A program made the position numbers and the translations under genes. The notes beneath the pieces were generated by a model. The model was not told the DNA's origin. It did no database searches and saw only the letters and a list, made by a program, of their open reading frames with translations. This document shows, one piece after another, positions 9,227 to 39,011 of a DNA stretch of 39,364 bases. The stretch is from Candidatus Faecivivens stercorigallinarum (lineage in GTDB: Bacteria; Bacillota; Clostridia; Oscillospirales; Ruminococcaceae), in assembly GCA_018715465.1 (NCBI GenBank), contig DVLN01000134.1:1-39364 (forward strand), given 5' to 3'. Every line of letters begins with the position of its first letter. Position 1 is the first letter of the stretch.

Positions 9227-9340
9227 GAAAGGAAAAAGGTTGACCGGATTGCAAATCCTGACTGACCCGGTATTACAGGTTTGTAAATGGTATATTTTTT
9301 TATGGTTAATCTGTTGCGTTTGTCGAGCAGTTGGAGCGCG

Positions 9341-9565
9341 GCCGACCAATGCGAATTAGTCCGTGGCGACACGCCACCCGGTGCGTTCGCTATGGCTGTT
9401 ACCATTGTAACCGAGGCGGTCGCAACGTCGCCGACCAATGCAAATTAGTTCGTGGCGACACGCCGCCCGGCGCGTTCGCTATGGCTGTTACCATTGTAAC
9501 CGAGGCGGTCGGAACGCCGCCGACCAACGCGAATTAGTCCGTGGCGACACGCCACCGCGCCGCTT
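9341..9565. repeat. 89-bp tandem repeat, about 2.5 copies
   Basis: Copies start at 9341, 9430 and 9519 (GCCGACCAAyGCrAATTAGTyCGTGGCGACACGCC...). Each contains the hairpins GTGGCG-ACA-CGCCAC and GGTCGG-AACGCCG-CCGACC. The unit is homologous to a module at 33065-33135 and 22998-23100. Confidence 0.9.
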
Positions 9566-9592
9566 GCAAAAAACGACATGGGGTGGTATAAT
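9564..9592 (+). promoter_or_regulatory. sigma-A promoter for recJ
   Basis: TTGCAA (9564-9569), a 17-nt spacer, then TGgTATAAT (extended -10, hexamer at 9587-9592). Confidence 0.6.
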
Positions 9593-9634
9593 GATTTTGT
9601 ATTTTTACCTGACAGCTGAAAGGAAGGAAATGTC

Positions 9635-11683
9635 ATGCCGTTTACCCAATGGATCTACCCCGCTCAGAGTGAAGAGCGGCTGCGCCAGAGCCGCCTTTTG
9701 CAGCGGGAACAGGGAATCCCTGCGCTGCTTGCGGATATTCTCGCGGCTCGCGGGTTTGGGGCGGATCATGTGGCTGCATTGCTGACAGATGACGGCAGCC
9801 TGGAAGACCCTTTTCTGCTGCCGGATATGCAGGTCGCTGTCGACCGGATCGAAAAGGCGATCGAATCGGGCGAAAAGATTGCTGTGTATGGTGACTATGA
9901 CTGCGACGGCGTGACTTCGACCGTTATCCTCTACAGCTATCTTCAGTCGATGGGCGCTGACGTCTGCTATTATATTCCTGACCGGCTGGACGAAGGGTTC
10001 GGCATGAATCGCGGTGCTGTCGACCATCTCCATGAGCAGGGAGTTACCCTGATTATTACCGTCGATAACGGTACGTCTGCACTGGATGAAGTCGCTTATG
10101 CCGGGAAACTGGGGATGGATGTCGTTGTCACCGACCACCATATCCCCGGACCGGAATTGCCAAAGGCGGTGGCTGTGGTCAATCCCCACCGGCCGGATTA
10201 TGTCGGATTTAACCAGCTGTGCGGTGCTGGGGTCGCGCTCAAACTAACCGCTGCGCTGGATGGCGGCAGCTATGAAATGGTGCTGGAGAGCTTCGCTCCT
10301 CTCGCCGCAATCGGTACCATCGGCGACGTCGTGCCGCTGGTCGGTGAAAACAGGACGCTGGTCAGACGGGGTATGCAGCTGATGCCGATGAGCGAAAGCG
10401 CCGGCCTTCAGGCACTGATCACCGCTGCCGGGCTGAATGGCGGCGAACTGACCGCCGGAAAGATTGCTTTTGGCCTTTGCCCCCGCATCAATGCCGCTGG
10501 TAGGATGGGGGACGCCAGACTTGCGGCAAAACTGCTGCTGTCGGAAGAGGAGGATGAGGCCGCGGAAATGGCTGAACAGCTCTGCCTGCTCAACCAGAAC
10601 CGCCGCGATCAGGAAGAAGAAATCCTTCGGGCGGTTGAACAGCAGATTGAACAAAACCCTGAACTGCTGCTTGATCGGGTGCTGGTACTGTCTGCGCCGG
10701 GGCTCAATCACGGGGTCGTCGGGATTGTCGCTTCACGGGTGCTGACCCTGTACGGAAAACCCTGCTTTATCCTGTCGGAAGAAGGGGAGCTGGCGGTTGG
10801 TTCGGGCAGAAGCATCGGGAATTTCGGACTGTTTGACGCAGTCTATGCCTGTCGTCAACTGCTGGAACGGTACGGCGGACACAAGCTCGCCGCCGGGCTG
10901 ACCCTCAAAACAGAAAATATCCCTGCTTTCCGAGAGGCCATCAACCGTTATGCAGCGGCTGAATTTGACCGGATGCCGGTCGTCCAGACGGTGATCGACC
11001 GGAGACTGCGGGCGGCGGATATCGAGCTTTCTTCGGTCGAGCTGCTGGAATGTCTCGAACCGTTTGGAGAGGGAAATCCCCAGCCGGTTTTTCTGATGCG
11101 GGACTGCATGGTCGAAGGGGTGACGCCGCTGTCGGGCGGCAAACATATCAAACTCCGGGTCGCGTTTGAGGGGAGAAGTGTGTTTGTCCTCTGTTTTCGG
11201 ATGACGCCCGAACAGTTTATCTACCCCAAGGGGAGCATGATCGACCTGCTGGTCTGTCTGGAGGTCAATTCCTTCCGGGACACAAAGAGCATCTCTATTC
11301 GGATGCGGGATATCCGTCCGTCAGGGTTCGAGGAAAAGAAAAACCTCAATGCCGCTTATTATTATGAAAAATTGAGAAGGGGCGAACCGGTTGGGAGTAA
11401 AATCCTGTCCGTCGCGGTACCGGCTATTGCCGAGCTGCGCAGTCTCTACCGGCTGCTGATGGGCGCCGGGAAAGAGTGCAGCCCCGACCTTTTATATCTC
11501 CAGTCGGTGGACGGCAGGCTCAATTACTGCAAATACCGGCTGTCACTGGATATCTTCCGGGAGATGGGACTGGTGGAAATCTCCCCTGACTTTTCGGTCA
11601 TGCGGCTGCTGCCGGTCGCCGGGAAGGTCAGGATGGAGGAGTCTTCCATCCTCCGGCAGCTGACCGGTGGGAGATCGTCCTGA
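9635..11683 (+). CDS. recJ: single-stranded-DNA-specific exonuclease RecJ
   Basis: DHH motifs VYGDYDCDGVTS, DRLDEGFGMN, ITVDNGTSA and VVTDHH, plus DHHA1 GGHKLAAG. RBS AAGGAAGGA. Confidence 0.95.
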   Translation: MPFTQWIYPAQSEERLRQSRLLQREQGIPALLADILAARGFGADHVAALLTDDGSLEDPFLLPDMQVAVDRIEKAIESGEKIAVYGDYDCDGVTSTVILYSYLQSMGADVCYYIPDRLDEGFGMNRGAVDHLHEQGVTLIITVDNGTSALDEVAYAGKLGMDVVVTDHHIPGPELPKAVAVVNPHRPDYVGFNQLCGAGVALKLTAALDGGSYEMVLESFAPLAAIGTIGDVVPLVGENRTLVRRGMQLMPMSESAGLQALITAAGLNGGELTAGKIAFGLCPRINAAGRMGDARLAAKLLLSEEEDEAAEMAEQLCLLNQNRRDQEEEILRAVEQQIEQNPELLLDRVLVLSAPGLNHGVVGIVASRVLTLYGKPCFILSEEGELAVGSGRSIGNFGLFDAVYACRQLLERYGGHKLAAGLTLKTENIPAFREAINRYAAAEFDRMPVVQTVIDRRLRAADIELSSVELLECLEPFGEGNPQPVFLMRDCMVEGVTPLSGGKHIKLRVAFEGRSVFVLCFRMTPEQFIYPKGSMIDLLVCLEVNSFRDTKSISIRMRDIRPSGFEEKKNLNAAYYYEKLRRGEPVGSKILSVAVPAIAELRSLYRLLMGAGKECSPDLLYLQSVDGRLNYCKYRLSLDIFREMGLVEISPDFSVMRLLPVAGKVRMEESSILRQLTGGRSS

Positions 11684-11714
11684 ATGCGTATATGCAAAGG
11701 AGAGGGGAAAGAAT

Positions 11715-13901
11715 ATGATTCAGACGAAAATCGAAACCTATGACGATTTGCTTGCTGCGCTTCGCGCCAGCGACAAGGTGTATGATCTTGATAAAATCGA
11801 GCGGGCTTATCAGGTCGCTGACAAGGCTCACGGCGGCCAGGTCCGCAAATCCGGCGATCCGTATATCTCTCATCCGCTTTCGGTCGCGATCATTCTGGTG
11901 GGAATGGGAATGGATACCGACTGTATCTGTGCAGCACTATTGCATGATGTGGTGGAGGATACCGCTGTTTCGCTGGACGATCTGCGCCGCAGTTTCGGGG
12001 AGGATGTCGCGATTATGGTCAGCGGCGTCACCAAGCTGACCAATATGCCCCTTTCAACCAAGGAAGAACAGCAGGCGGAAAATATCCGTAAAATGCTGCT
12101 GGCAATGAACGAGGATATCCGGGTTATTCTGATTAAGCTGGCTGACCGTCTGCACAATATGCGGACAATGCAGTATCAGAGCCCCGATAAACAGCGCAGC
12201 AAGTCTCATGAGACAATGGAAATCTATGCGCCGATTGCCCACCGGCTGGGTATCCGAAGCGTTAAAGATGAGCTGGAAGACCTGGCACTGCGTTACCTCG
12301 ACCCGGTTGCATATAAGGAAATCGAGGACCAGCTGGATATGACCAAGGGACAGCGGGAACAGTTTATCCGGGATGTACAGGCTCGTATCCTTGAGAGGTT
12401 TGACGAATTCGGGCTGCATCCTCATATCGAGGGACGGGTCAAGTCAATCTACGGCATCTACCGAAAAATTTACGTCAAGGGCAAGTCGTTTGAGGAAATC
12501 TATGATATCTATGCAGTCCGGCTGATCGTCGATACTACAACCGAATGCTATAACGCGCTGGGGCTGATACACGACATGTTCACCCCCATCCCCAACCGAT
12601 TTAAGGACTATATTTCGACCCCCAAGCCCAACCAGTACCAGTCGCTGCATACTTCAGTACTCGATCACGGCGTGCCGTTTGAGGTGCAGATCCGTACCTG
12701 GGATATGCACTATACCGCTGAATACGGTATCGCCGCCCATTGGAAATACAAGGCCGGCATCTCCAAAGGGGACGTCAAGAGCGATAAACAGCTGGAGTGG
12801 ATCCGTAAGATCATCGAGTCTCAGCAGGAGGCGGAAGGGGAAGACCTGATGCGGAATATCCGCACCGACCTTTCTTCCGATGACGTGTTTGTCTTCACCC
12901 CGAAGGGGGATGTCAAGACGCTGCCTGCCGGGTCGACAATTATTGACTTTGCCTATGCAATTCATACTGCGGTCGGCAACCGGATGACCGGCGCGAAGGT
13001 CGACGGGCGTATTGTCCCGCTGAGCTATGAGCTCAAGACTGGCGAGATCGTTGAGGTACTGACCGCTAAAAACGGAACCGGCCCCAAGCGCGGCTGGCTG
13101 GAAATCGCCAAAACCAGTGAAGCACGCAACAAAATTCGCGGCTGGTTTAAGCGGGAACGGCGGGATGAAAATATCGCTTCCGGCAAGGCAATTGTCGAAC
13201 AGGAATTCAAACGCAACCAGATTCGTTTTGATACCGATGAAGAATATCTGGCGTTTATGGATGAGCTGGTCAAACGTCAGCATAAGGAATCGCTGGATGA
13301 CTTTTATGCCGCAATCGGTTATGGTGGTCTGGTGCTGTCCCACCTGATGCCGCGTATTAAGGACGCTTACGCCAAACAGGCCAGCAATTTCGCCGAGCGG
13401 GAGCTGGAAAAGCTCAAAAAGGCACCGCTCATCACCAAAAATGGTGCGCCGGTCATCGTCGAAGGTATCGGCAACAACTGTCCGGTCAAGATGGCAAAAT
13501 GCTGCAACCCGCTGCCGGGGGACGATATCGTCGGGTTTATCACCCGCGGGTATGGTGTTTCGGTCCACAAGCGAGACTGCGCGAATGCGCAGGCGTCGCT
13601 GCGGGATGTCGCCCAGCGGGAACGCTGGATCAAGGTCAGATGGGCGCCCGAAGCGCAGGTCGATTTCCGGGCAAGCATCCAGATTATTGCAACCAACCGT
13701 GATGGGTTGGCGGCGGATGTTGCGCTTGCCATTGCGAACATGCGGGTGCCGCTGCATGAGATCAGCGCACGCGGCCTGAAAAACGGCAACGCGGAGGTAC
13801 TGCTGACCATCTCTACCCAGGGCAAGGAACACCTCGAAACGATCTGTCAGAAGCTCGGCAAGATTCACGGCGTTATCTCGGTCGAACGCACCGGACGCTA
13901 A
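11715..13901 (+). CDS. relA: bifunctional (p)ppGpp synthetase/hydrolase RelA/SpoT
   Basis: HD domain (HPLSVAIIL...LLHDVVEDT), synthetase motif (YRKIYVKGKSFEEIYDIYAVRLIV, HTSV), and TGS and ACT regions. The ATG at 11715 has RBS AAGGAGAGGGG; the track start at 11667 overlaps recJ. Confidence 0.95.
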   Translation: MIQTKIETYDDLLAALRASDKVYDLDKIERAYQVADKAHGGQVRKSGDPYISHPLSVAIILVGMGMDTDCICAALLHDVVEDTAVSLDDLRRSFGEDVAIMVSGVTKLTNMPLSTKEEQQAENIRKMLLAMNEDIRVILIKLADRLHNMRTMQYQSPDKQRSKSHETMEIYAPIAHRLGIRSVKDELEDLALRYLDPVAYKEIEDQLDMTKGQREQFIRDVQARILERFDEFGLHPHIEGRVKSIYGIYRKIYVKGKSFEEIYDIYAVRLIVDTTTECYNALGLIHDMFTPIPNRFKDYISTPKPNQYQSLHTSVLDHGVPFEVQIRTWDMHYTAEYGIAAHWKYKAGISKGDVKSDKQLEWIRKIIESQQEAEGEDLMRNIRTDLSSDDVFVFTPKGDVKTLPAGSTIIDFAYAIHTAVGNRMTGAKVDGRIVPLSYELKTGEIVEVLTAKNGTGPKRGWLEIAKTSEARNKIRGWFKRERRDENIASGKAIVEQEFKRNQIRFDTDEEYLAFMDELVKRQHKESLDDFYAAIGYGGLVLSHLMPRIKDAYAKQASNFAERELEKLKKAPLITKNGAPVIVEGIGNNCPVKMAKCCNPLPGDDIVGFITRGYGVSVHKRDCANAQASLRDVAQRERWIKVRWAPEAQVDFRASIQIIATNRDGLAADVALAIANMRVPLHEISARGLKNGNAEVLLTISTQGKEHLETICQKLGKIHGVISVERTGR

Positions 13902-14400
13902 GCGGGGCCCGGTGTCCGGGCGGACTTAATGCCAACGTTGTATCACGCTCTAAATGCTCAGCAAACGCACGTCGCTTCACCGCTCGGAACGATAGAAGTT
14001 GTACGCAATCTCTGCCCGGTGGTTTGACCGGCGCGCAGAGCGCCGGGGTTGGGTTACGCACAAACTGGCGTTGGTAATAATTCAAAAGTTTAGGTCAAGC
14101 CTTTTCAAAGGCTTGCAGGTCCAGGACGGAGTCCTGGTCGCCCGTCGCAACGGGCGAAATCCTTTCCCCAAAATAAGCTCAGCAAGGGGTAGCAAAATGC
14201 CCGCAGGCATTTTGTGTAGGGGACGCATAGCAAGGGCGTCCCCTATGGGAAAAGTCCGCTCGATGCGGGCTTTTTCCATAAACGAGCGAGCTTGTAACTT
14301 TCAATTTATGCTGTCAGTGGGACTACGTGGGCCGGCACGGCGCTGACGATTTTTCATCCGTTTTCCCCATAAACTGTCCGGTGGACAGTTTATGGCGGGT
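13902..14400 (-). repeat. mosaic multi-hairpin element, copy A (inverted relative to copies B and C)
   Basis: Chain of hairpins at 14097-14114, 14121-14137, 14138-14157, 14194-14213, 14217-14245, 14247-14277 and 14367-14395. Its reverse complement is collinear with 22633-22940 and 32679-33003. The segment 13921-14050 matches the two ends of copy C. Confidence 0.8.
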
Positions 14401-14539
14401 GGCGGGTCGCCATGGACGAATTCGCGATGGTTGGACAGGGCGGATTCAAAAGTAAAACTCCCTCCGTCACCGCCTGTACGGCTATACCCAAAAAATGCTC
14501 CATATCCATATCAATCCATTCAACAGGAGATAAAACAGT

Positions 14540-15013
14540 ATGAAACTGGTGATTCAGCGGGTTTCCCGCGCAAAAGTAACCTCCGGGCCGGAAACGCTCG
14601 GCGAAATTGGACAGGGCCTGATGATCCTCTGCGGCGTGATGGAAGGGGATACCGTCGAAGACGCCCACTGGCTGGCGGACAAGACCGTCAAGCTCCGTAT
14701 CTTTACCGACCCGGATGATAAACTCAACCTGTCGCTTGAGGATATCGGCGGTGGCGCACTGGTTGTCAGCAACTTTACCCTCGCAGGCTCCTGCCGCCGC
14801 GGCAATCGTCCATCCTTTATCCGCGCTGCCAAACATCCGGCCTCGGAAGATTTGTATGAAGAATATGTCCGCAGACTTCGGGAAAACGGTGTCCCGACTG
14901 CGACTGGACGCTTCGGCGCACCAATGGAAATCGACATGGCTGCTGATGGCCCGATCACCATTCTGATGGATTCGGAGGAACGCGGCCTGCCCAGACATAG
15001 CGCGGAAAACTGA
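14540..15013 (+). CDS. dtd: D-aminoacyl-tRNA deacylase
   Basis: MKLVIQRVSRAKV...GQGLMILCGV...LSLEDIGGGALVVSNFTL...GNRPSF is the full-length Dtd signature. RBS AGGAGA. Confidence 0.95.
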   Translation: MKLVIQRVSRAKVTSGPETLGEIGQGLMILCGVMEGDTVEDAHWLADKTVKLRIFTDPDDKLNLSLEDIGGGALVVSNFTLAGSCRRGNRPSFIRAAKHPASEDLYEEYVRRLRENGVPTATGRFGAPMEIDMAADGPITILMDSEERGLPRHSAEN

Positions 15014-18285: not shown

Positions 18286-18837
18286 ATGGGATTTATTGAT
18301 GAACTGTTGTCTTCCGCGAAGATCGTGGTCGACAAGGCCGGAAAACAGACCGATAAGGTTCTGGAAATTTCCAAACTCAAATATCAGAGCATCCAGCTTC
18401 AGAATGAACTGAGCCATCTCTATGAACAGCTGGGTGTCGCGACCTATGCAAAAATGGTCCAGGAAGCTGACAATGGCGACCTGATCGCGTCGCTGGGCGA
18501 CGAGATCACCGAGGTGCGCGCTGCCCTTGAGGTCGTTGAGGAAAAAATCAGCGAACAGAAAAACCTTCGCACCTGCCCCAATTGCGGCGCTAAACTCCCC
18601 CGTGAGGCTGTTTTCTGCTCCAGCTGCGGTACAAAGCTGGAAGATGATGAGGATGTGCCCGCGGATGATGCCGGCTGCTGCTGCGATGAGGAATGCGGCA
18701 CTGCCTGCGGCGAGGAATGCTGCGCCGATGAGGAGCCGTCCTGCTGCTGCGGCGAAAAGGCTGCGGATGAAACGGAAGAGGCTGAGGGATGCTGTGAAAA
18801 GGATCCCGCTGCCGGTGAGACGAAAAACGCTGAATAA
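18286..18837 (+). CDS. coiled-coil / zinc-ribbon protein with an acidic poly-cysteine tail
   Basis: ATG at 18286 after GAAAGGAAGG (the track start at 18265 is GTG). Zinc ribbon CPNCGAKLPREAVFCSSCG. Tail DDAGCCCDEECGTACGEECCADEEPSCCCGEKAADETEEAEGCCEKD. Confidence 0.75.
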   Translation: MGFIDELLSSAKIVVDKAGKQTDKVLEISKLKYQSIQLQNELSHLYEQLGVATYAKMVQEADNGDLIASLGDEITEVRAALEVVEEKISEQKNLRTCPNCGAKLPREAVFCSSCGTKLEDDEDVPADDAGCCCDEECGTACGEECCADEEPSCCCGEKAADETEEAEGCCEKDPAAGETKNAE

Positions 18838-22489: not shown

Positions 22490-23215
22490 TATCTCCGGCT
22501 TTCTGTTTTGGCGGTGACAGAAGGAGTAAACGGCGGCAACAGCTGCCGCCTTGGCTCTCCATTAGGAGAGCAGCCATCCGTAGAGGCTTCACGATAGTGA
22601 CTGAGAGGGCGAAAAACGATTATGTTGTACCGCCATGAACTGTCCACCGGACAGTTCATGGGGAGAACAAGTCGAATATCGTCAGCGCCGTGCCGGCTCA
22701 CGTAGTCCCACCTGAGCGGGTAAGGCGGAACTGCTGTCCTCGCTCGTTTTTATGGATGAAGAGGGTATCGAACCCCCTTCATCCATAGGGGACGCCCTTG
22801 CTATGCGTCCCCTACGCAAAATACCTGCGGGCATTTTGCTACCCCTTGCTGAGCTGATTTTGGGGAAAGGATTTCGCTCTCTGCGGAGAGCGACCAGGGG
22901 CTCTGCCCGCTGGACCCCGCAAGCCTTTGAAAAGGCTTGACCTAAACTTTTGAATGATTACTCCCGTTAGAAAGTGCTTTTCGTTACCAACTACCTACCC
23001 GGCGCGTTTGCAAAGATTGTTATTTTGCAATCGAGGCCGTCGGTAGCGCATGTATGCGCTTCGCGGCCGAACAACGCGATCAAGTCAGCGCGGACACCGC
23101 GCCCGTCGGTAGTGCATGTATGCGCTTCGCGGCCGAACAACGCGAACAAGGGAGCGGAAGCATTCCGCCGCAGGCACTGCGCCCCGGAAACCGGGTAACA
23201 AATGGGGAGTGTGTT
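22490..23215 (+). repeat. mosaic multi-hairpin element, copy B
   Basis: Hairpins at 22532-22550, 22633-22661, 22754-22784, 22786-22814, 22818-22837, 22874-22893, 22894-22913 and 22921-22938, plus the 66-bp duplicated module. It is collinear with copy C and with the reverse complement of copy A. Confidence 0.8.
23037..23168. repeat. 66-bp tandem duplication inside copy B
   Basis: CCGTCGGTAGyGCATGTATGCGCTTCGCGGCCGAACAACGCGAwCAAG occurs at 23037 and at 23103. Each copy contains the palindrome GCGCAT-GT-ATGCGC. Confidence 0.8.
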
Positions 23216-32589: not shown

Positions 32590-33320
32590 TTGTTTGAGCG
32601 GTGAAGCAACGTTCGTTTTCTGAACTGTTGGAGCGTGGTTGAGTATTGGCATTATGTCGGCAGTGACACGCTGCACCGTTGTTGACTGTCCACCGGACAG
32701 TCAACAAGGTCAGGCGGGCAATTATCGTCAGCGGCGTGCCGCCCCACGTAGTCCCACCTGAGCAAATAAGCCGAAACTGCTGTCCTCGCTCGTTTATGGG
32801 AAAAGGCCGCATCGAACGGCCTTTTCCCATAGGGGACGCCCTTGCTATAGCGTCCAGCAAATCCCTTCGGGAATTGCACGCCCAATGCCTGCGGGCATTG
32901 GGCTACCCCTTGCTGAGCTTATTTTGGGGAAAGGATTTCGCTCTCTGCGGAGAGCGACCAGGGGCTCTGCCCGCTGGACCCCGCAATTTTTTGAAAAAAA
33001 TTGAGTAAAACTTTTATGTCATTACTTCCGTCAGAAAGAGCTTTTCGTTACCAACTACCTACCAGGCGCGTTGGCTCAGGCTGTTATTCGCACAATCGAG
33101 GCGGTCGGAACGCCGCCGACCATCGCGAACAAGGGAGCGCAGGCTCTGCGCCCTTTGAAAAGGCTTGACCTAAACTTTTTGTCATGACCGACGTTAAAAA
33201 GTGCAGAACATAACCCCGGCGCTCTGCGCGCCGGTCAAACTGCCGGGCAGAGATTGCGCACAATTTCTATCGTCCCGAGCGGAAAAAAACATGCGCTTGC
33301 TGGGCACGTAGGGCGGGGGA
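32590..33320 (+). repeat. mosaic multi-hairpin element, copy C (longest; contains all modules)
   Basis: Module X at 32596-32660. Hairpins at 32679-32707, 32798-32828, 32857-32877, 32881-32902, 32938-32957 and 32984-33003. The GGTCGG/CCGACC module is at 33098-33121, hairpin GCGCAG-GCT-CTGCGC at 33137-33151, and module M1 at 33210-33282. Confidence 0.8.
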
Positions 33321-36557: not shown

Positions 36558-37652
36558 ATGGCTGACAAAAAATCTGCTGTAACCGAACTGATGGAGCAGG
36601 GAAAACTCAAGGGCAAACTGACTGCCAAGGAAATCACCGACGCTCTGGAAGAGATGGACTTTGACCCGGAACAGCTGGACAAGTTTTATGATTCCCTTGA
36701 AAGCAGCAACATTGAAATCCTTGATGACCTGAGCATCGACGAAGACTTTGATATCGGGCTGGAGGATGCCGCGGCCATCGAGGCAGATACCGTTTATACC
36801 GGCGATGGCATCAATATCGACGACCCTGTCAAGGTATACCTCAAAGAAATCGGCCGTGTCCCGCTGCTGAGTGCTGATGAGGAAAACGAACTCGCCGAGA
36901 AGATGGCAAGCGATGACCCCAAGGTCGCCGCTGAGGCCAGAAAACGGCTGAGTGAAGCCAACCTCCGTCTGGTCGTTTCGATCGCAAAACGGTATGTCGG
37001 GCGCGGGATGCAGTTTTTGGATCTGATTCAGGAGGGCAACCTCGGCCTGATCAAAGCGGTCGAAAAGTTTGACCACACCAAGGGCTTTAAGTTCTCGACC
37101 TACGCAACCTGGTGGATTCGCCAGGCTATTACCCGTGCAATCGCTGACCAGGCGCGCACCATCCGTATCCCTGTCCATATGGTCGAGACCATCAACCGCG
37201 TCAAGAAGGTATCCAGCCAGCTGCTGCATGCCAACGGCCACGAGCCCAGCGCGGAAGAGATCGCCGACGAACTGGACATGCCGGTCGACAAGGTCCGCGA
37301 GATTCTGCGGGTCTCCCAGGAGCCTGTTTCGCTGGAAACGCCAATCGGCGAAGAGGAAGACAGCCATCTCGGCGACTTTATCCCGGATGACGACGCACCC
37401 TCTCCGGTCGATGCCGCCAGCCATACTCTGCTCAAGGAACAGCTCGGTGCTGTCCTAAAAACGCTGACGCCCCGTGAAGCGAAGGTCCTTTCGCTCCGCT
37501 TCGGGCTGGAAGACGGCAAGAGCCGTACCCTTGAAGAGGTCGGCAAGGAGTTCAACGTCACCCGTGAACGTATCCGCCAGATCGAAGCCAAGGCGCTGCG
37601 CAAGCTCCGCCACCCCAGCAGAAGCAAAAAGCTGAAAGATTTCCTCGACTGA
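36558..37652 (+). CDS. rpoD: RNA polymerase primary sigma factor
   Basis: Region 2 [72 protein letters not shown], and region 4 [29 protein letters not shown]. The gene follows dnaG. Confidence 0.97.
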
Positions 37653-37666
37653 TCATCCTGTAAGTG

Positions 37667-37720
37667 AAACCCCCGCTGTTTTCCGGCTGGCAACCGGAGA
37701 GCAGCGGGGGTTTGAATTTA
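37667..37720 (+). terminator. terminator after rpoD
   Basis: AAACCCCCGCTG (37667-37678) pairs with CAGCGGGGGTTT (37702-37713), with an inner TCCGG/CCGGA hairpin. TTTGAATTT follows. Confidence 0.7.
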
Positions 37721-37725
37721 TCATA

Positions 37726-37758
37726 TAAAAAATAGGGCACAGCCGAAAGGCCGCGCCC
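37726..37758 (-). terminator. strand-specific intrinsic terminator of the esterase gene
   Basis: Minus strand reads GGGCGCGGCC-TTTC-GGCTGTGCCC (two G-U pairs, which would be A-C mismatches on the plus strand), then TATTTTTTAT. Confidence 0.7.
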
Positions 37759-37796
37759 CGCAAAAACGGAAAACCGTTTTTTCCTTGGCTAAACTG

Positions 37797-39011
37797 TTAT
37801 TTGTGCTGTGCGGCGAGCCATTCAAAGATGGTGGTGGGCTTGCCGTTGAGCAGGACAGGCGAACCGTCAAAGTCCAGCTTGCAGTCGTTGTTCAGCGTAT
37901 AAATCCAGCTGGCATGGCCCATGTATTCAAACGGTGTGCCGTCGGGCTTTTTAAACCGTCCGGTCTGGTCGAGGACCCGCTCATAGTAGGAGAAGTGGAC
38001 GTTCTCAGCGCCCGCCGCCATCAGCCGTTTATAGGTGGGGACAGCCGTTTCATCCGGCGGAACAACCGTATCGACCTTTGCATGGGTAAACCAGATCGGG
38101 ATATGTTTGATGTTTTCGATATCCCGGTCGGAGATCGTCTCATCGTACAGTGCTTCACAGATGGGGTATGCGCCTGCAAAATAATCGGGATAGTCAATGA
38201 TCATCCGCATCGTCATAAATCCGCCGTTGGAGCAGCCGCCAATATAAATCCGGCTGCGGTCAATTTCCGGGTGGGCCGCGACAAATTCCTCAATCGTTGC
38301 CATCAGAGCGGTCACATATTTGGACTTGCCGGTACGGGTATACTGGCCGGAGCCGTTGTCCATCCACATTGTCTCGCACTGGGGTGCCAGCACCCATGCG
38401 CCGCCGAACAGCGACTGGATCTCTTCAAACGCAAGGTTGATGACCTTATTGCCGAGAATTGCGACGTAGGGGTCCCAGCCGCCTTCGCCTGCACCATGCA
38501 GCCAGATGATCAGCGGGGGGTTGGCGTTGTCCAGCTGAGGTTTGACCCAGGCCATGTTCAGCCCTGCGGCCGATACACCGGTTTCAACCAGCTCTTTGCC
38601 TTCCAGAATCAGCTCGCCGCGGTTGGCGATGACCTTGCCCTGATATTCAATGGTGCAGCGCCAGTCAGAAAGGGTGGTGAAGCCTTTTTTCTGATAGGCA
38701 AGGGAAGAGTATGGCTTGGTGGGGCCGTAGTCGGGCTCCAGCAGCGCATACTCGCCTTCCGCAGCCGGGTTGCCGTCTGCATCGCAGGGGCAGGCCGTCA
38801 GGATTTCCAGCGGGCCGACTGCCGGGACGATGGTTTTGGAGAAAAAGGACTTGGGGGTCATTGCGACCAGACCGGTCTGCTGATCAATCTTATAGACATG
38901 GACCTTGAAATCCTCTGCCGAAAGATCGCGGACGGTTTTTCCCATATCCACAATAATTTTGGTTACATGTCCGCCCCAGTCGAGGACGGGCGCAAATGCC
39001 TGATAGCTCAT
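37797..39011 (-). CDS. alpha/beta-hydrolase esterase/peptidase (prolyl-oligopeptidase or PHB-depolymerase-like fold)
   Basis: Nucleophile elbow IGGCSNGG, oxyanion-type IIWLHGAGEGG, and C-terminal His region EYMGHASW. The ATG at 39011 follows AGGAGG; the track start at 39092 has no RBS. Confidence 0.8.
   Translation of the reverse strand: MSYQAFAPVLDWGGHVTKIIVDMGKTVRDLSAEDFKVHVYKIDQQTGLVAMTPKSFFSKTIVPAVGPLEILTACPCDADGNPAAEGEYALLEPDYGPTKPYSSLAYQKKGFTTLSDWRCTIEYQGKVIANRGELILEGKELVETGVSAAGLNMAWVKPQLDNANPPLIIWLHGAGEGGWDPYVAILGNKVINLAFEEIQSLFGGAWVLAPQCETMWMDNGSGQYTRTGKSKYVTALMATIEEFVAAHPEIDRSRIYIGGCSNGGFMTMRMIIDYPDYFAGAYPICEALYDETISDRDIENIKHIPIWFTHAKVDTVVPPDETAVPTYKRLMAAGAENVHFSYYERVLDQTGRFKKPDGTPFEYMGHASWIYTLNNDCKLDFDGSPVLLNGKPTTIFEWLAAQHK

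Follow-up and report, generated by a model that had tools for sequence, protein, structure and literature searches.

The relA and dtd genes of Candidatus Faecivivens stercorigallinarum lie on the same strand with a gap full of hairpins between them, which raises the question of what this chain of hairpins is and how it came to stand there. We addressed it within the window, by which we mean the whole stretch of 39,364 nucleotides that was analysed, and then in related genomes. A preliminary description had named the chain copy A of a hairpin element, with copies B and C lying in the opposite orientation elsewhere in the window. For its nature it had offered two options: an RNA transcribed on its own, or an element acting at the level of DNA, whether mobile or recombinogenic.

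The relA–dtd gap and its hairpins

Sequence reading and Pfam bore out the 638-bp gap that had been placed between the end of relA at 13901 and the start of dtd at 14540. The relA gene closes with a TAA stop codon (13899–13901) and is preceded on the + strand by recJ (9635–11683), while dtd is followed on the same strand by a metallo-beta-lactamase-fold gene and then a radical-SAM gene, as read from open reading frames and Pfam. The predicted ribosome-binding site of dtd, AGGAG, occupies 14525–14529. From relA to dtd, the locus is composed of the following features.

11667–13901, + strand: relA/spoT-type (p)ppGpp synthetase-hydrolase gene, the upstream flank (Pfam HD_4, RelA_SpoT, TGS, ACT_4, RelA_AH_RIS)
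13903–13985, + strand: module X, a separate small repeat with ~13 genome copies by coverage profile; forms pair I5 with 32596–32678 (73%)
14010–14083, + strand: left extension module, with hairpin CCGGCGC-GCAGA-GCGCCGG at 14028–14046; ~15–22 copies by coverage profile
14084–14398, + strand: core of copy A, the hairpin chain H1–H8 with conserved loops and linkers (alignments, pair counts, folding z-scores)
14097–14114, + strand: H1, AAGCCTT-TTCA-AAGGCTT; helix 1, 99% paired, 4 pairs changed on both sides
14121–14137, + strand: H2, CCAGGAC-GGA-GTCCTGG; the sister-species ortholog has a different, longer hairpin allele instead
14138–14157, + strand: H3, TCGCCCGT-CGCA-ACGGGCGA; loop conserved, stem present as five recurrent discrete alleles plus rarer variants
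14194–14213, + strand: H4, AAAATGCC-CGCA-GGCATTTT; lacking in 24 of 64 copies
14217–14245, + strand: H5, TAGGGGACGC ... GCGTCCCCTA
14247–14277, + strand: H6; copy A pairs at 13 positions where the family consensus has 15 pairs, loop TCGAT(G) conserved
14313–14347, + strand: H7 region, GTCAG ... GCCG-GCA-CGGC ... CTGAC, inside the most sequence-conserved block (ACTACGTGGGCCGGCACGGCGCTGAC)
14367–14395, + strand: H8, the terminal hairpin; helix 15, seven inner pairs (ACTGTCC / GGACAGT) invariant in 64 of 64 copies, outer stem covarying
14399–14539, + strand: spacer before dtd, mostly low-copy; ~1–5 weak genome matches, 86.4% identity to the ortholog in G009
14540–15013, + strand: dtd (D-Tyr-tRNA deacylase), the downstream flank (Pfam Tyr_Deacylase, E = 1.2e-49)

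Base-by-base reading recovered all seven hairpins listed in the preliminary description, along with three extra ones in the spacer (13907–13921, 14028–14046 and 14331–14341), so that its count of at least eight hairpins in the gap holds. Its further point, that read-through from relA to dtd must cross at least eight of them, is right in its geometry, the two genes being presumably co-transcribed.

The core ends sharply on its right side, where the palindrome ACTGTCC-GGT-GGACAGT, with an extended stem, is followed by (A/G)CGG and sometimes by TACARC; in copy A the palindrome is followed by CGG. On its left side, the core has two alternative flanking modules that run on into other repeats. Other copies replace the left extension by the alternative left module, which appears in the alignment as two left-flank types. 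Module X sits on the opposite side of the core in copy C and also stands alone on contigs C177, C186, C9, C119, C80 and C170. The H1 module is likewise found alone, as well as in more distant species.

A dispersed family and an inherited insertion

The claim that copy A is reversed relative to copies B and C proved correct: module by module, it is their reverse complement (inverted-repeat pairs I1–I9). Positions 13903–14398 match, inverted, 22630–22961 (copy B) and 32596–33282 (copy C). Within this stretch, 14133–14282 pairs inverted with 22749–22898 (150 nt, 85%) and 14317–14398 with 22630–22711 (88%). The two further cores are placed as follows.

22630–22961, − strand: copy B core, flanked by an S4-domain gene (yabO-like) and one of the yabP family, anti-directional to both
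32685–33015, − strand: copy C core, upstream of rpmE (ribosomal protein L31), between divergent genes

The window also carries tandem arrays of 89-nt and 66-nt units, at 9327–9593 and 23032–23169 (families D2–D4 and D7). Both arrays are related to a further module (CGCGGCCGAACAACGCGA...), which also flanks copies B and C.

When the relA–dtd spacer was compared by BLAST with its own assembly, 55 matches were obtained. The coverage profile separates the core (14084–14398), at ~27–34 copies in the genome, from the left extension and from module X, which it delimits at 13912–13985. Near-full cores in this metagenome-assembled genome (MAG) number ~26 (to 31), with 70–88% identity to copy A, on 17–21 of 220 contigs. 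The palindromic modules measure 17–35 nt and are present, absent or permuted between copies, giving each copy a mosaic make-up. Partial copies begin at module borders, at about position 155–170 of the core, rather than at random positions, and a retro-element-like 5′ truncation was therefore rejected. The repeat is a chain of at least eight independent DNA palindromes with a core of ~320 nt, reaching up to ~500–700 nt with flanking modules.

The element-bearing contigs (21 of 220, totalling 326 kb of 2.16 Mb; e.g., C9, C73, C79, C133, C216 and C220) have a slightly higher GC content (54.1% vs 52.2%) and a shifted tetranucleotide composition. In the MAG BRZ_GV_bin68 (likely G001), a pattern scan gave no matches on the lowest-numbered contigs, which are apparently the largest. 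Restriction of the elements to few contigs could reflect regional chromosomal clustering or a mixed bin. Several element-bearing spacers (on C133, C79, C220 and C9) adjoin large proteins with choline-binding or cell-wall-binding repeats.

The gene context of 25 copies was judged on a codon-usage-based gene call. Each of the 25 cores examined lies between genes, in a spacer of 445–1547 nt, and orientation relative to genes is random: seven lie between convergent genes, seven between divergent genes, five are co-directional, four are anti-directional, and two lie at contig ends, where they have a single flanking gene. The preliminary description had argued from the two orientations within the window against a simple leader or terminator, and this argument extends genome-wide, as the 25 copies include all orientation classes. 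A general leader, 3′-UTR or terminator role is contradicted by these orientations together with a terminator scan against shuffled sequences.

The element could instead have evolved at this one locus as a cis-regulatory attenuator, terminator or insulator that uncouples dtd from relA. Such a device would fit the single orientation kept in the relA–dtd spacer of all five carriers and the one terminator-like site on the + strand of copy A, at 14258–14270. However, the T-run of that site belongs to the H6 stem, and terminator-like sites are not above shuffles (2 vs 1.3). The same element also occupies no fewer than 25 unrelated intergenic regions, among which all orientation classes occur, and three congeners have no such spacer at all. 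We consider a locus-specific device extremely improbable.

To compare the junction between species, we located it with Dtd as the probe and then read the relA end and the dtd start at each locus. The preliminary description had proposed this comparison in search of presence/absence polymorphism, and both filled and empty sites were found. Far from being the same everywhere, the spacer shrinks in G003, G011 and G008 to 21, 27 and 33 nt, respectively, and all three are empty. This 21–33-nt junction of three more distant congeners represents a tight, ancestral-looking state; the spacer of G007 is 87 nt. In G000 (the genome of the window), G009, G001, G014 and G005, the element lies upstream of dtd in the same orientation (5/5). 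Dtd identity to the protein of the window is 92–99% in the five carrier species vs at most 78% in the rest. Because all five close-Dtd species hold the element in the same orientation, the insertion is placed in the common ancestor of the clade, with inheritance thereafter. The formerly tight relA–dtd junction thus received the element in an ancestor common to the five species, all of which have retained it. The hope that relatives would also reveal the exact insertion boundaries was not borne out: no clean junction was readable, as the flanks are ~80–91% identical and the neighbouring modules differ.

Other insertions were seen at the same place. The spacers of G010 (271 nt) and G013 (415 nt) contain other, unrelated hairpin-rich inserts, and that of G012 (L053, about 150–1500) measures 1347 nt, with two inserted ORFs and no hairpin repeats. 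The relA–dtd junction is evidently an insertion hot spot.

The distribution search covered 41 genomes, comprising 40 relatives and G000. Within the genus (the Ca. Faecivivens / UBA1448 group), the full element was present in 5 of the 15 species searched (G000, G001, G005, G009 and G014). Of the element, G003, G006, G012 and G015 had the H1 module alone. An exact-pattern scan identified as carriers Ca. Faecivivens stercoripullorum, Ruminococcaceae bacterium UBA1448 and UBA1405, and the uncultured Clostridia MAGs BRZ_GV_bin68 and E09_bin225; NCBI taxonomy places Ca. Faecivivens within Oscillospiraceae. In the four species that have H1 but not the full element, one of which belongs to another genus, the H1 module (AAAAGTTTAGGTCAAGCCTTTTCAAAGGCTTG) has many stand-alone copies (loci L036–L040), and it may be an older, independent repeat. 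A search of viral contigs for the element returned 0 matches, on which ground a phage origin was rejected. In a metagenome collection, five short contigs match the element, one of them labelled human gut. A literature search with signature sequences of the repeat gave no match. The hairpin-chain repeat is previously undescribed and occurs in a handful of uncultured gut Oscillospiraceae species.

Whole hairpins replaced by alleles from a common pool

Folded as DNA, the + strand of the relA–dtd spacer reaches −80.9 kcal/mol vs −46.8 ± 3.8 kcal/mol for shuffles (z = −9.0); the − strand folded as RNA gives z = −6.2. Covariation was assessed on a 64-copy alignment from six MAG species, with 74 consensus pairs taken from folds of both strands. 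In this set, 92.3% of cells are paired, compared with 78.3% in shuffles and 38–48% with slid partners, and 44 of the 74 pairs change on both sides. Pairing is near complete in H6 and H8 (98–99% of cells). Of the 15 pairs of H6 (helix 13, 99% of cells paired), 13 vary between copies in both partners, and H7 exists as two compensatory alleles, GCCG/CGGC in 41 copies vs GGCG/CGCC in 15.

All top-scoring pairs in a mutual-information scan with average-product correction fall within local hairpins, and the scan detected no enclosing helix, junction or pseudoknot among the 64 copies. A long-range helix signal at 231/233–343/345 was traced to an internal duplication of AGCAAGGGG rather than to pairing. 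The hairpins thus stand independently in a linear chain, an arrangement that we judge usual for palindromic DNA repeats but not for large functional RNAs.

The two strands differ modestly. On the copy-A + strand, the 4432 cells, drawn from copies that are related and not independent, include 231 G–U pairs, 156 A–C mismatches and 184 other non-pairs, where an A–C mismatch on the + strand is a G–U pair on the opposite strand. The mean minimum free energy is −154 kcal/mol on the + strand vs −150 kcal/mol on the − strand, with the + strand lower in 18 of 25 copies, and single-sequence folds hold 200 vs 139 G–U pairs, respectively. RNAalifold, in a weak comparison on a rough MAFFT alignment, gives −90.7 vs −78.1 kcal/mol for the two strands. 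This modest asymmetry leans to the copy-A + strand, short of the level of a selected RNA.

These observations bear on whether the element could be a multi-copy structured non-coding RNA gene on the copy-A + strand, in which the linkers and loops (e.g., the T-loop-like UUCGAUG of H6) are functional. The G–U excess (231 vs 156), the lower + strand energy and the strong covariation with conserved loops all agree with such a gene, as does the conservation of copy A above neutral proxies. H6 is topped on the + strand by GGGTTCGATGCCC, which resembles a tRNA T-arm. Homology and signal searches speak against it: Rfam 15 matched nothing anywhere in the window at the gathering threshold, and a search at E ≤ 10 over 13850–14560 gave noise only (E 0.5–9, 10–15 bits), ARAGORN finds no tRNA or tmRNA, and promoter-like sites number 0, with terminator-like sites again at 2 vs the 1.3 expected in shuffles. 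Visual inspection of the aligned copies revealed nothing in the left flank beyond an AT-rich GTAATRAT motif. The left end is not fixed but alternates between two modules, long-range and junction helices are missing from the set, A–C mismatches are nearly as frequent as G–U pairs, and whole modules come and go between copies. The loop hints also conflict: on the opposite strand, the tetraloops C(UGCG)G and C(UUCG)G, of the four-base type common in stable RNA hairpins, are formed by the H3 and H4 loops and by an extra hairpin that some copies have beside H5. An RNA gene is distinctly unlikely on this evidence.

Comparison of orthologous spacers identified filled and empty states of the same site. 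Spacer lengths are 480 vs 9 nt for L128/C9, 420 vs 23 nt for L104/C133, 765 vs 11 nt for L083/C79, and 636 vs 146 nt for L091 (E09_bin225)/37650–37797. In the last pair, the E09_bin225 spacer holds a full element. The 146-nt empty site at 37650–37797 has a palindrome of its own at 37662–37718 (pair I11).

At copy A, G000 and its close relative G009 (UBA1448) are 96.2% identical outside a single event, in which H2 is exchanged for a longer hairpin, an allele that also occurs in the C65 copy of the window's own genome. The pair further displays one compensatory double change, in H8. Between these genomes, the 96.2% of copy A compares with 91.8% for dtd third codon positions and 86.4% for the adjacent low-copy spacer, a ranking that hints at selection on copy A.

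The copy B ortholog provides the clearest view of the process. Between G000 and G009, its flanks are 94–97% identical, and the element itself hardly differs in its right-hand third. The stems of H1, H2, H3, H4, H6 and H7 differ, still perfectly complementary, with loops and linkers unchanged, and G009 has one extra hairpin. We judge these concerted stem changes to be templated, as they are too many for point substitution at such divergence. Across copies, hairpin alleles assort almost freely, with 6–8 of 9 top-allele pairings occurring for most hairpin pairs, and certain paralogs within the genome are 93–95% identical. The filled and empty sites, the H2 swap, the copy B swaps, the free assortment and the close paralogs together suggest that copies exchange sequence with one another by short-patch gene conversion or by recombination. 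Since the insertion, other alleles from a pool common to all copies have taken the place of whole hairpins, and the movement of hairpins as cassettes would account for the apparent compensatory evolution without RNA-level selection. Conservation of loops and linkers while stems vary implies a sequence-specific constraint that gene conversion alone does not explain and that may be a protein site, an RNA function or a recombination requirement.

Of the two options in the preliminary description, the independent RNA found no support, with no Rfam match, promoter or terminator signal, or long-range helices and a weak strand asymmetry. The DNA-level option gained in its recombinogenic form, given the empty and filled spacers, the hairpin swaps and the free assortment. 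Copy A is probably a vertically inherited member of a lineage-specific, non-coding, DNA-level recombinogenic mosaic interspersed repeat.

Mobility, known systems and significance

Several of the same observations would also be expected of a non-autonomous transposable element (REPIN, MITE or PATE), moved in trans by an enzyme, with its gene elsewhere or missing from these assemblies, that recognises ACTGTCC-GGT-GGACAGT and the conserved loops. These are the presence/absence at orthologous sites, the paralogs with 93–95% identity and the sharp, invariant right end. A perfect 10-nt direct repeat, ATTCAAAAGT, at 14080–14089 and 14444–14453, brackets the copy A core plus 46 nt, as a target-site duplication might. 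However, it overlaps the element consensus, is seen around copy A only and not as a rule at other copies, and ~0.2 such repeats are estimated to arise by chance; it could be what is left of a second H1-type module, or a coincidence.

The search for an enzyme argues against this reading. The Y1 transposase domain (RAYT, PF01797) had no match in the incomplete MAGs G000, G001 (98% complete), G005 and G009, in a search whose control genomes gave the expected matches. No TnpB domain exceeded the cut-off in 15 genomes; PF07282 matched below the cut-off only, once inside an ordinary gene (18541–18648). Two intact-looking Y1 transposase (IS200/RAYT-like) ORFs were observed in G014 (L129 and L130), the sole carrier with any.

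The ends and surroundings of the element were equally unlike those of a transposon. Over 13880–14560, inverted repeats are all internal or local and none links the two ends of the element, leaving no terminal inverted repeats. Comparisons of filled and empty sites gave no clean junction and no fixed duplication. No transposase lies beside the copies, and a parent IS with the same ends was not found, Y1 and TnpB having been searched genome-wide. The genes flanking the 25 copies include no recurrent family except cell-wall-binding repeat proteins. A 4.3-kb filled region in L067 was considered as an autonomous parent element and rejected, as it contains only cell-wall enzyme genes (GDSL lipase, beta-lactamase-family and amidase). 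We regard a transposable element as unlikely.

Two specific affiliations were also rejected: membership in a REP–RAYT system, since RAYT was not found in 4 of 5 carriers, and a TnpB omega-RNA or IS200/IS605 PATE, since Y1 was not found in 4 of 5 carriers, nor TnpB above its cut-off in any of 15 genomes. Lacking terminal inverted repeats and a parent IS, the element is not a classic MITE.

Among known systems, the hairpin-chain repeat appears most like BIME/REP mosaics and pneumococcal BOX elements. BIMEs of Enterobacteria (REP/PU palindromes) and REPINs of Pseudomonas are likewise high-copy, strictly intergenic and mosaic, with palindromes and conserved linkers, and they also occur in both orientations and inside operons. 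The present repeat differs from BIMEs, which contain 1–12 REPs, in having at least eight units in fixed order over 320–700 nt. It differs from both BIMEs and REPINs in that RAYT/Y1 was not found in 4 of 5 carriers, in its interchangeable stem alleles under conserved loops, and in a host range limited to a handful of Oscillospiraceae species. BOX elements (boxA-boxBn-boxC of Streptococcus pneumoniae) share the modular, non-coding, strongly folding and intergenic character, the Firmicutes host, the variable module number and the lack of an encoded transposase. This comparison is one of architecture, drawn from general knowledge, and no sequence relation was seen; the present repeat has more module types and hairpin-allele swapping, and no boxA/boxC-like terminal inverted repeats.

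Other resemblances are more partial. MITEs (Correia/NEMIS of Neisseria, RUP and ERIC/IRU) are similar in size range, intergenic location, folding potential and presence/absence between relatives, whereas the present repeat has no terminal inverted repeats, demonstrable target-site duplication or parent IS. Integron attC sites and IS200/IS605 ends similarly conserve secondary structure and short motifs while stem sequence is free. Here, by contrast, there is no integrase or cassette context, neither TnpB nor, in 4 of 5 carriers, TnpA was found, and a chain of many hairpins takes the place of one imperfect hairpin.

For the recombinogenic repeat that we favour, the conserved linkers and loops may supply the homology that anchors one copy to another during short-patch gene conversion or recombination. 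Exchange anchored in this way would keep both arms complementary without selection on RNA. The original dispersal of the repeat would require a trans-acting activity. At relA–dtd, the element may be carried passively in a read-through transcript, or it may keep relA and dtd apart. Termination and mRNA stability would be affected, if at all, only as a by-product, as with BIME and BOX elements.

A bolder reading treats the hairpin chain as the substrate of dedicated structure-specific machinery, with hairpin cassette exchange being active rather than incidental gene conversion. We consider this very unlikely. If true, a protein would read the loops, linkers and ACTGTCC-GGT-GGACAGT on single-stranded DNA or RNA, and the repeat would represent a non-coding element of a new class, mobile or diversifying, that might pass through an RNA stage.

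Repeats of this kind inflate intergenic regions within conserved operons, as at relA–dtd, may fragment MAG assemblies and could act as strain markers. Because hairpin exchange mimics compensatory evolution, it calls for caution in covariation-based RNA discovery. Should a cognate protein or transcript exist, the repeat would belong to a new system. As it stands, the family illustrates with unusual clarity how perfect stems persist in natural palindromic repeats: whole hairpins are exchanged between copies, even at the orthologous loci of sister species.
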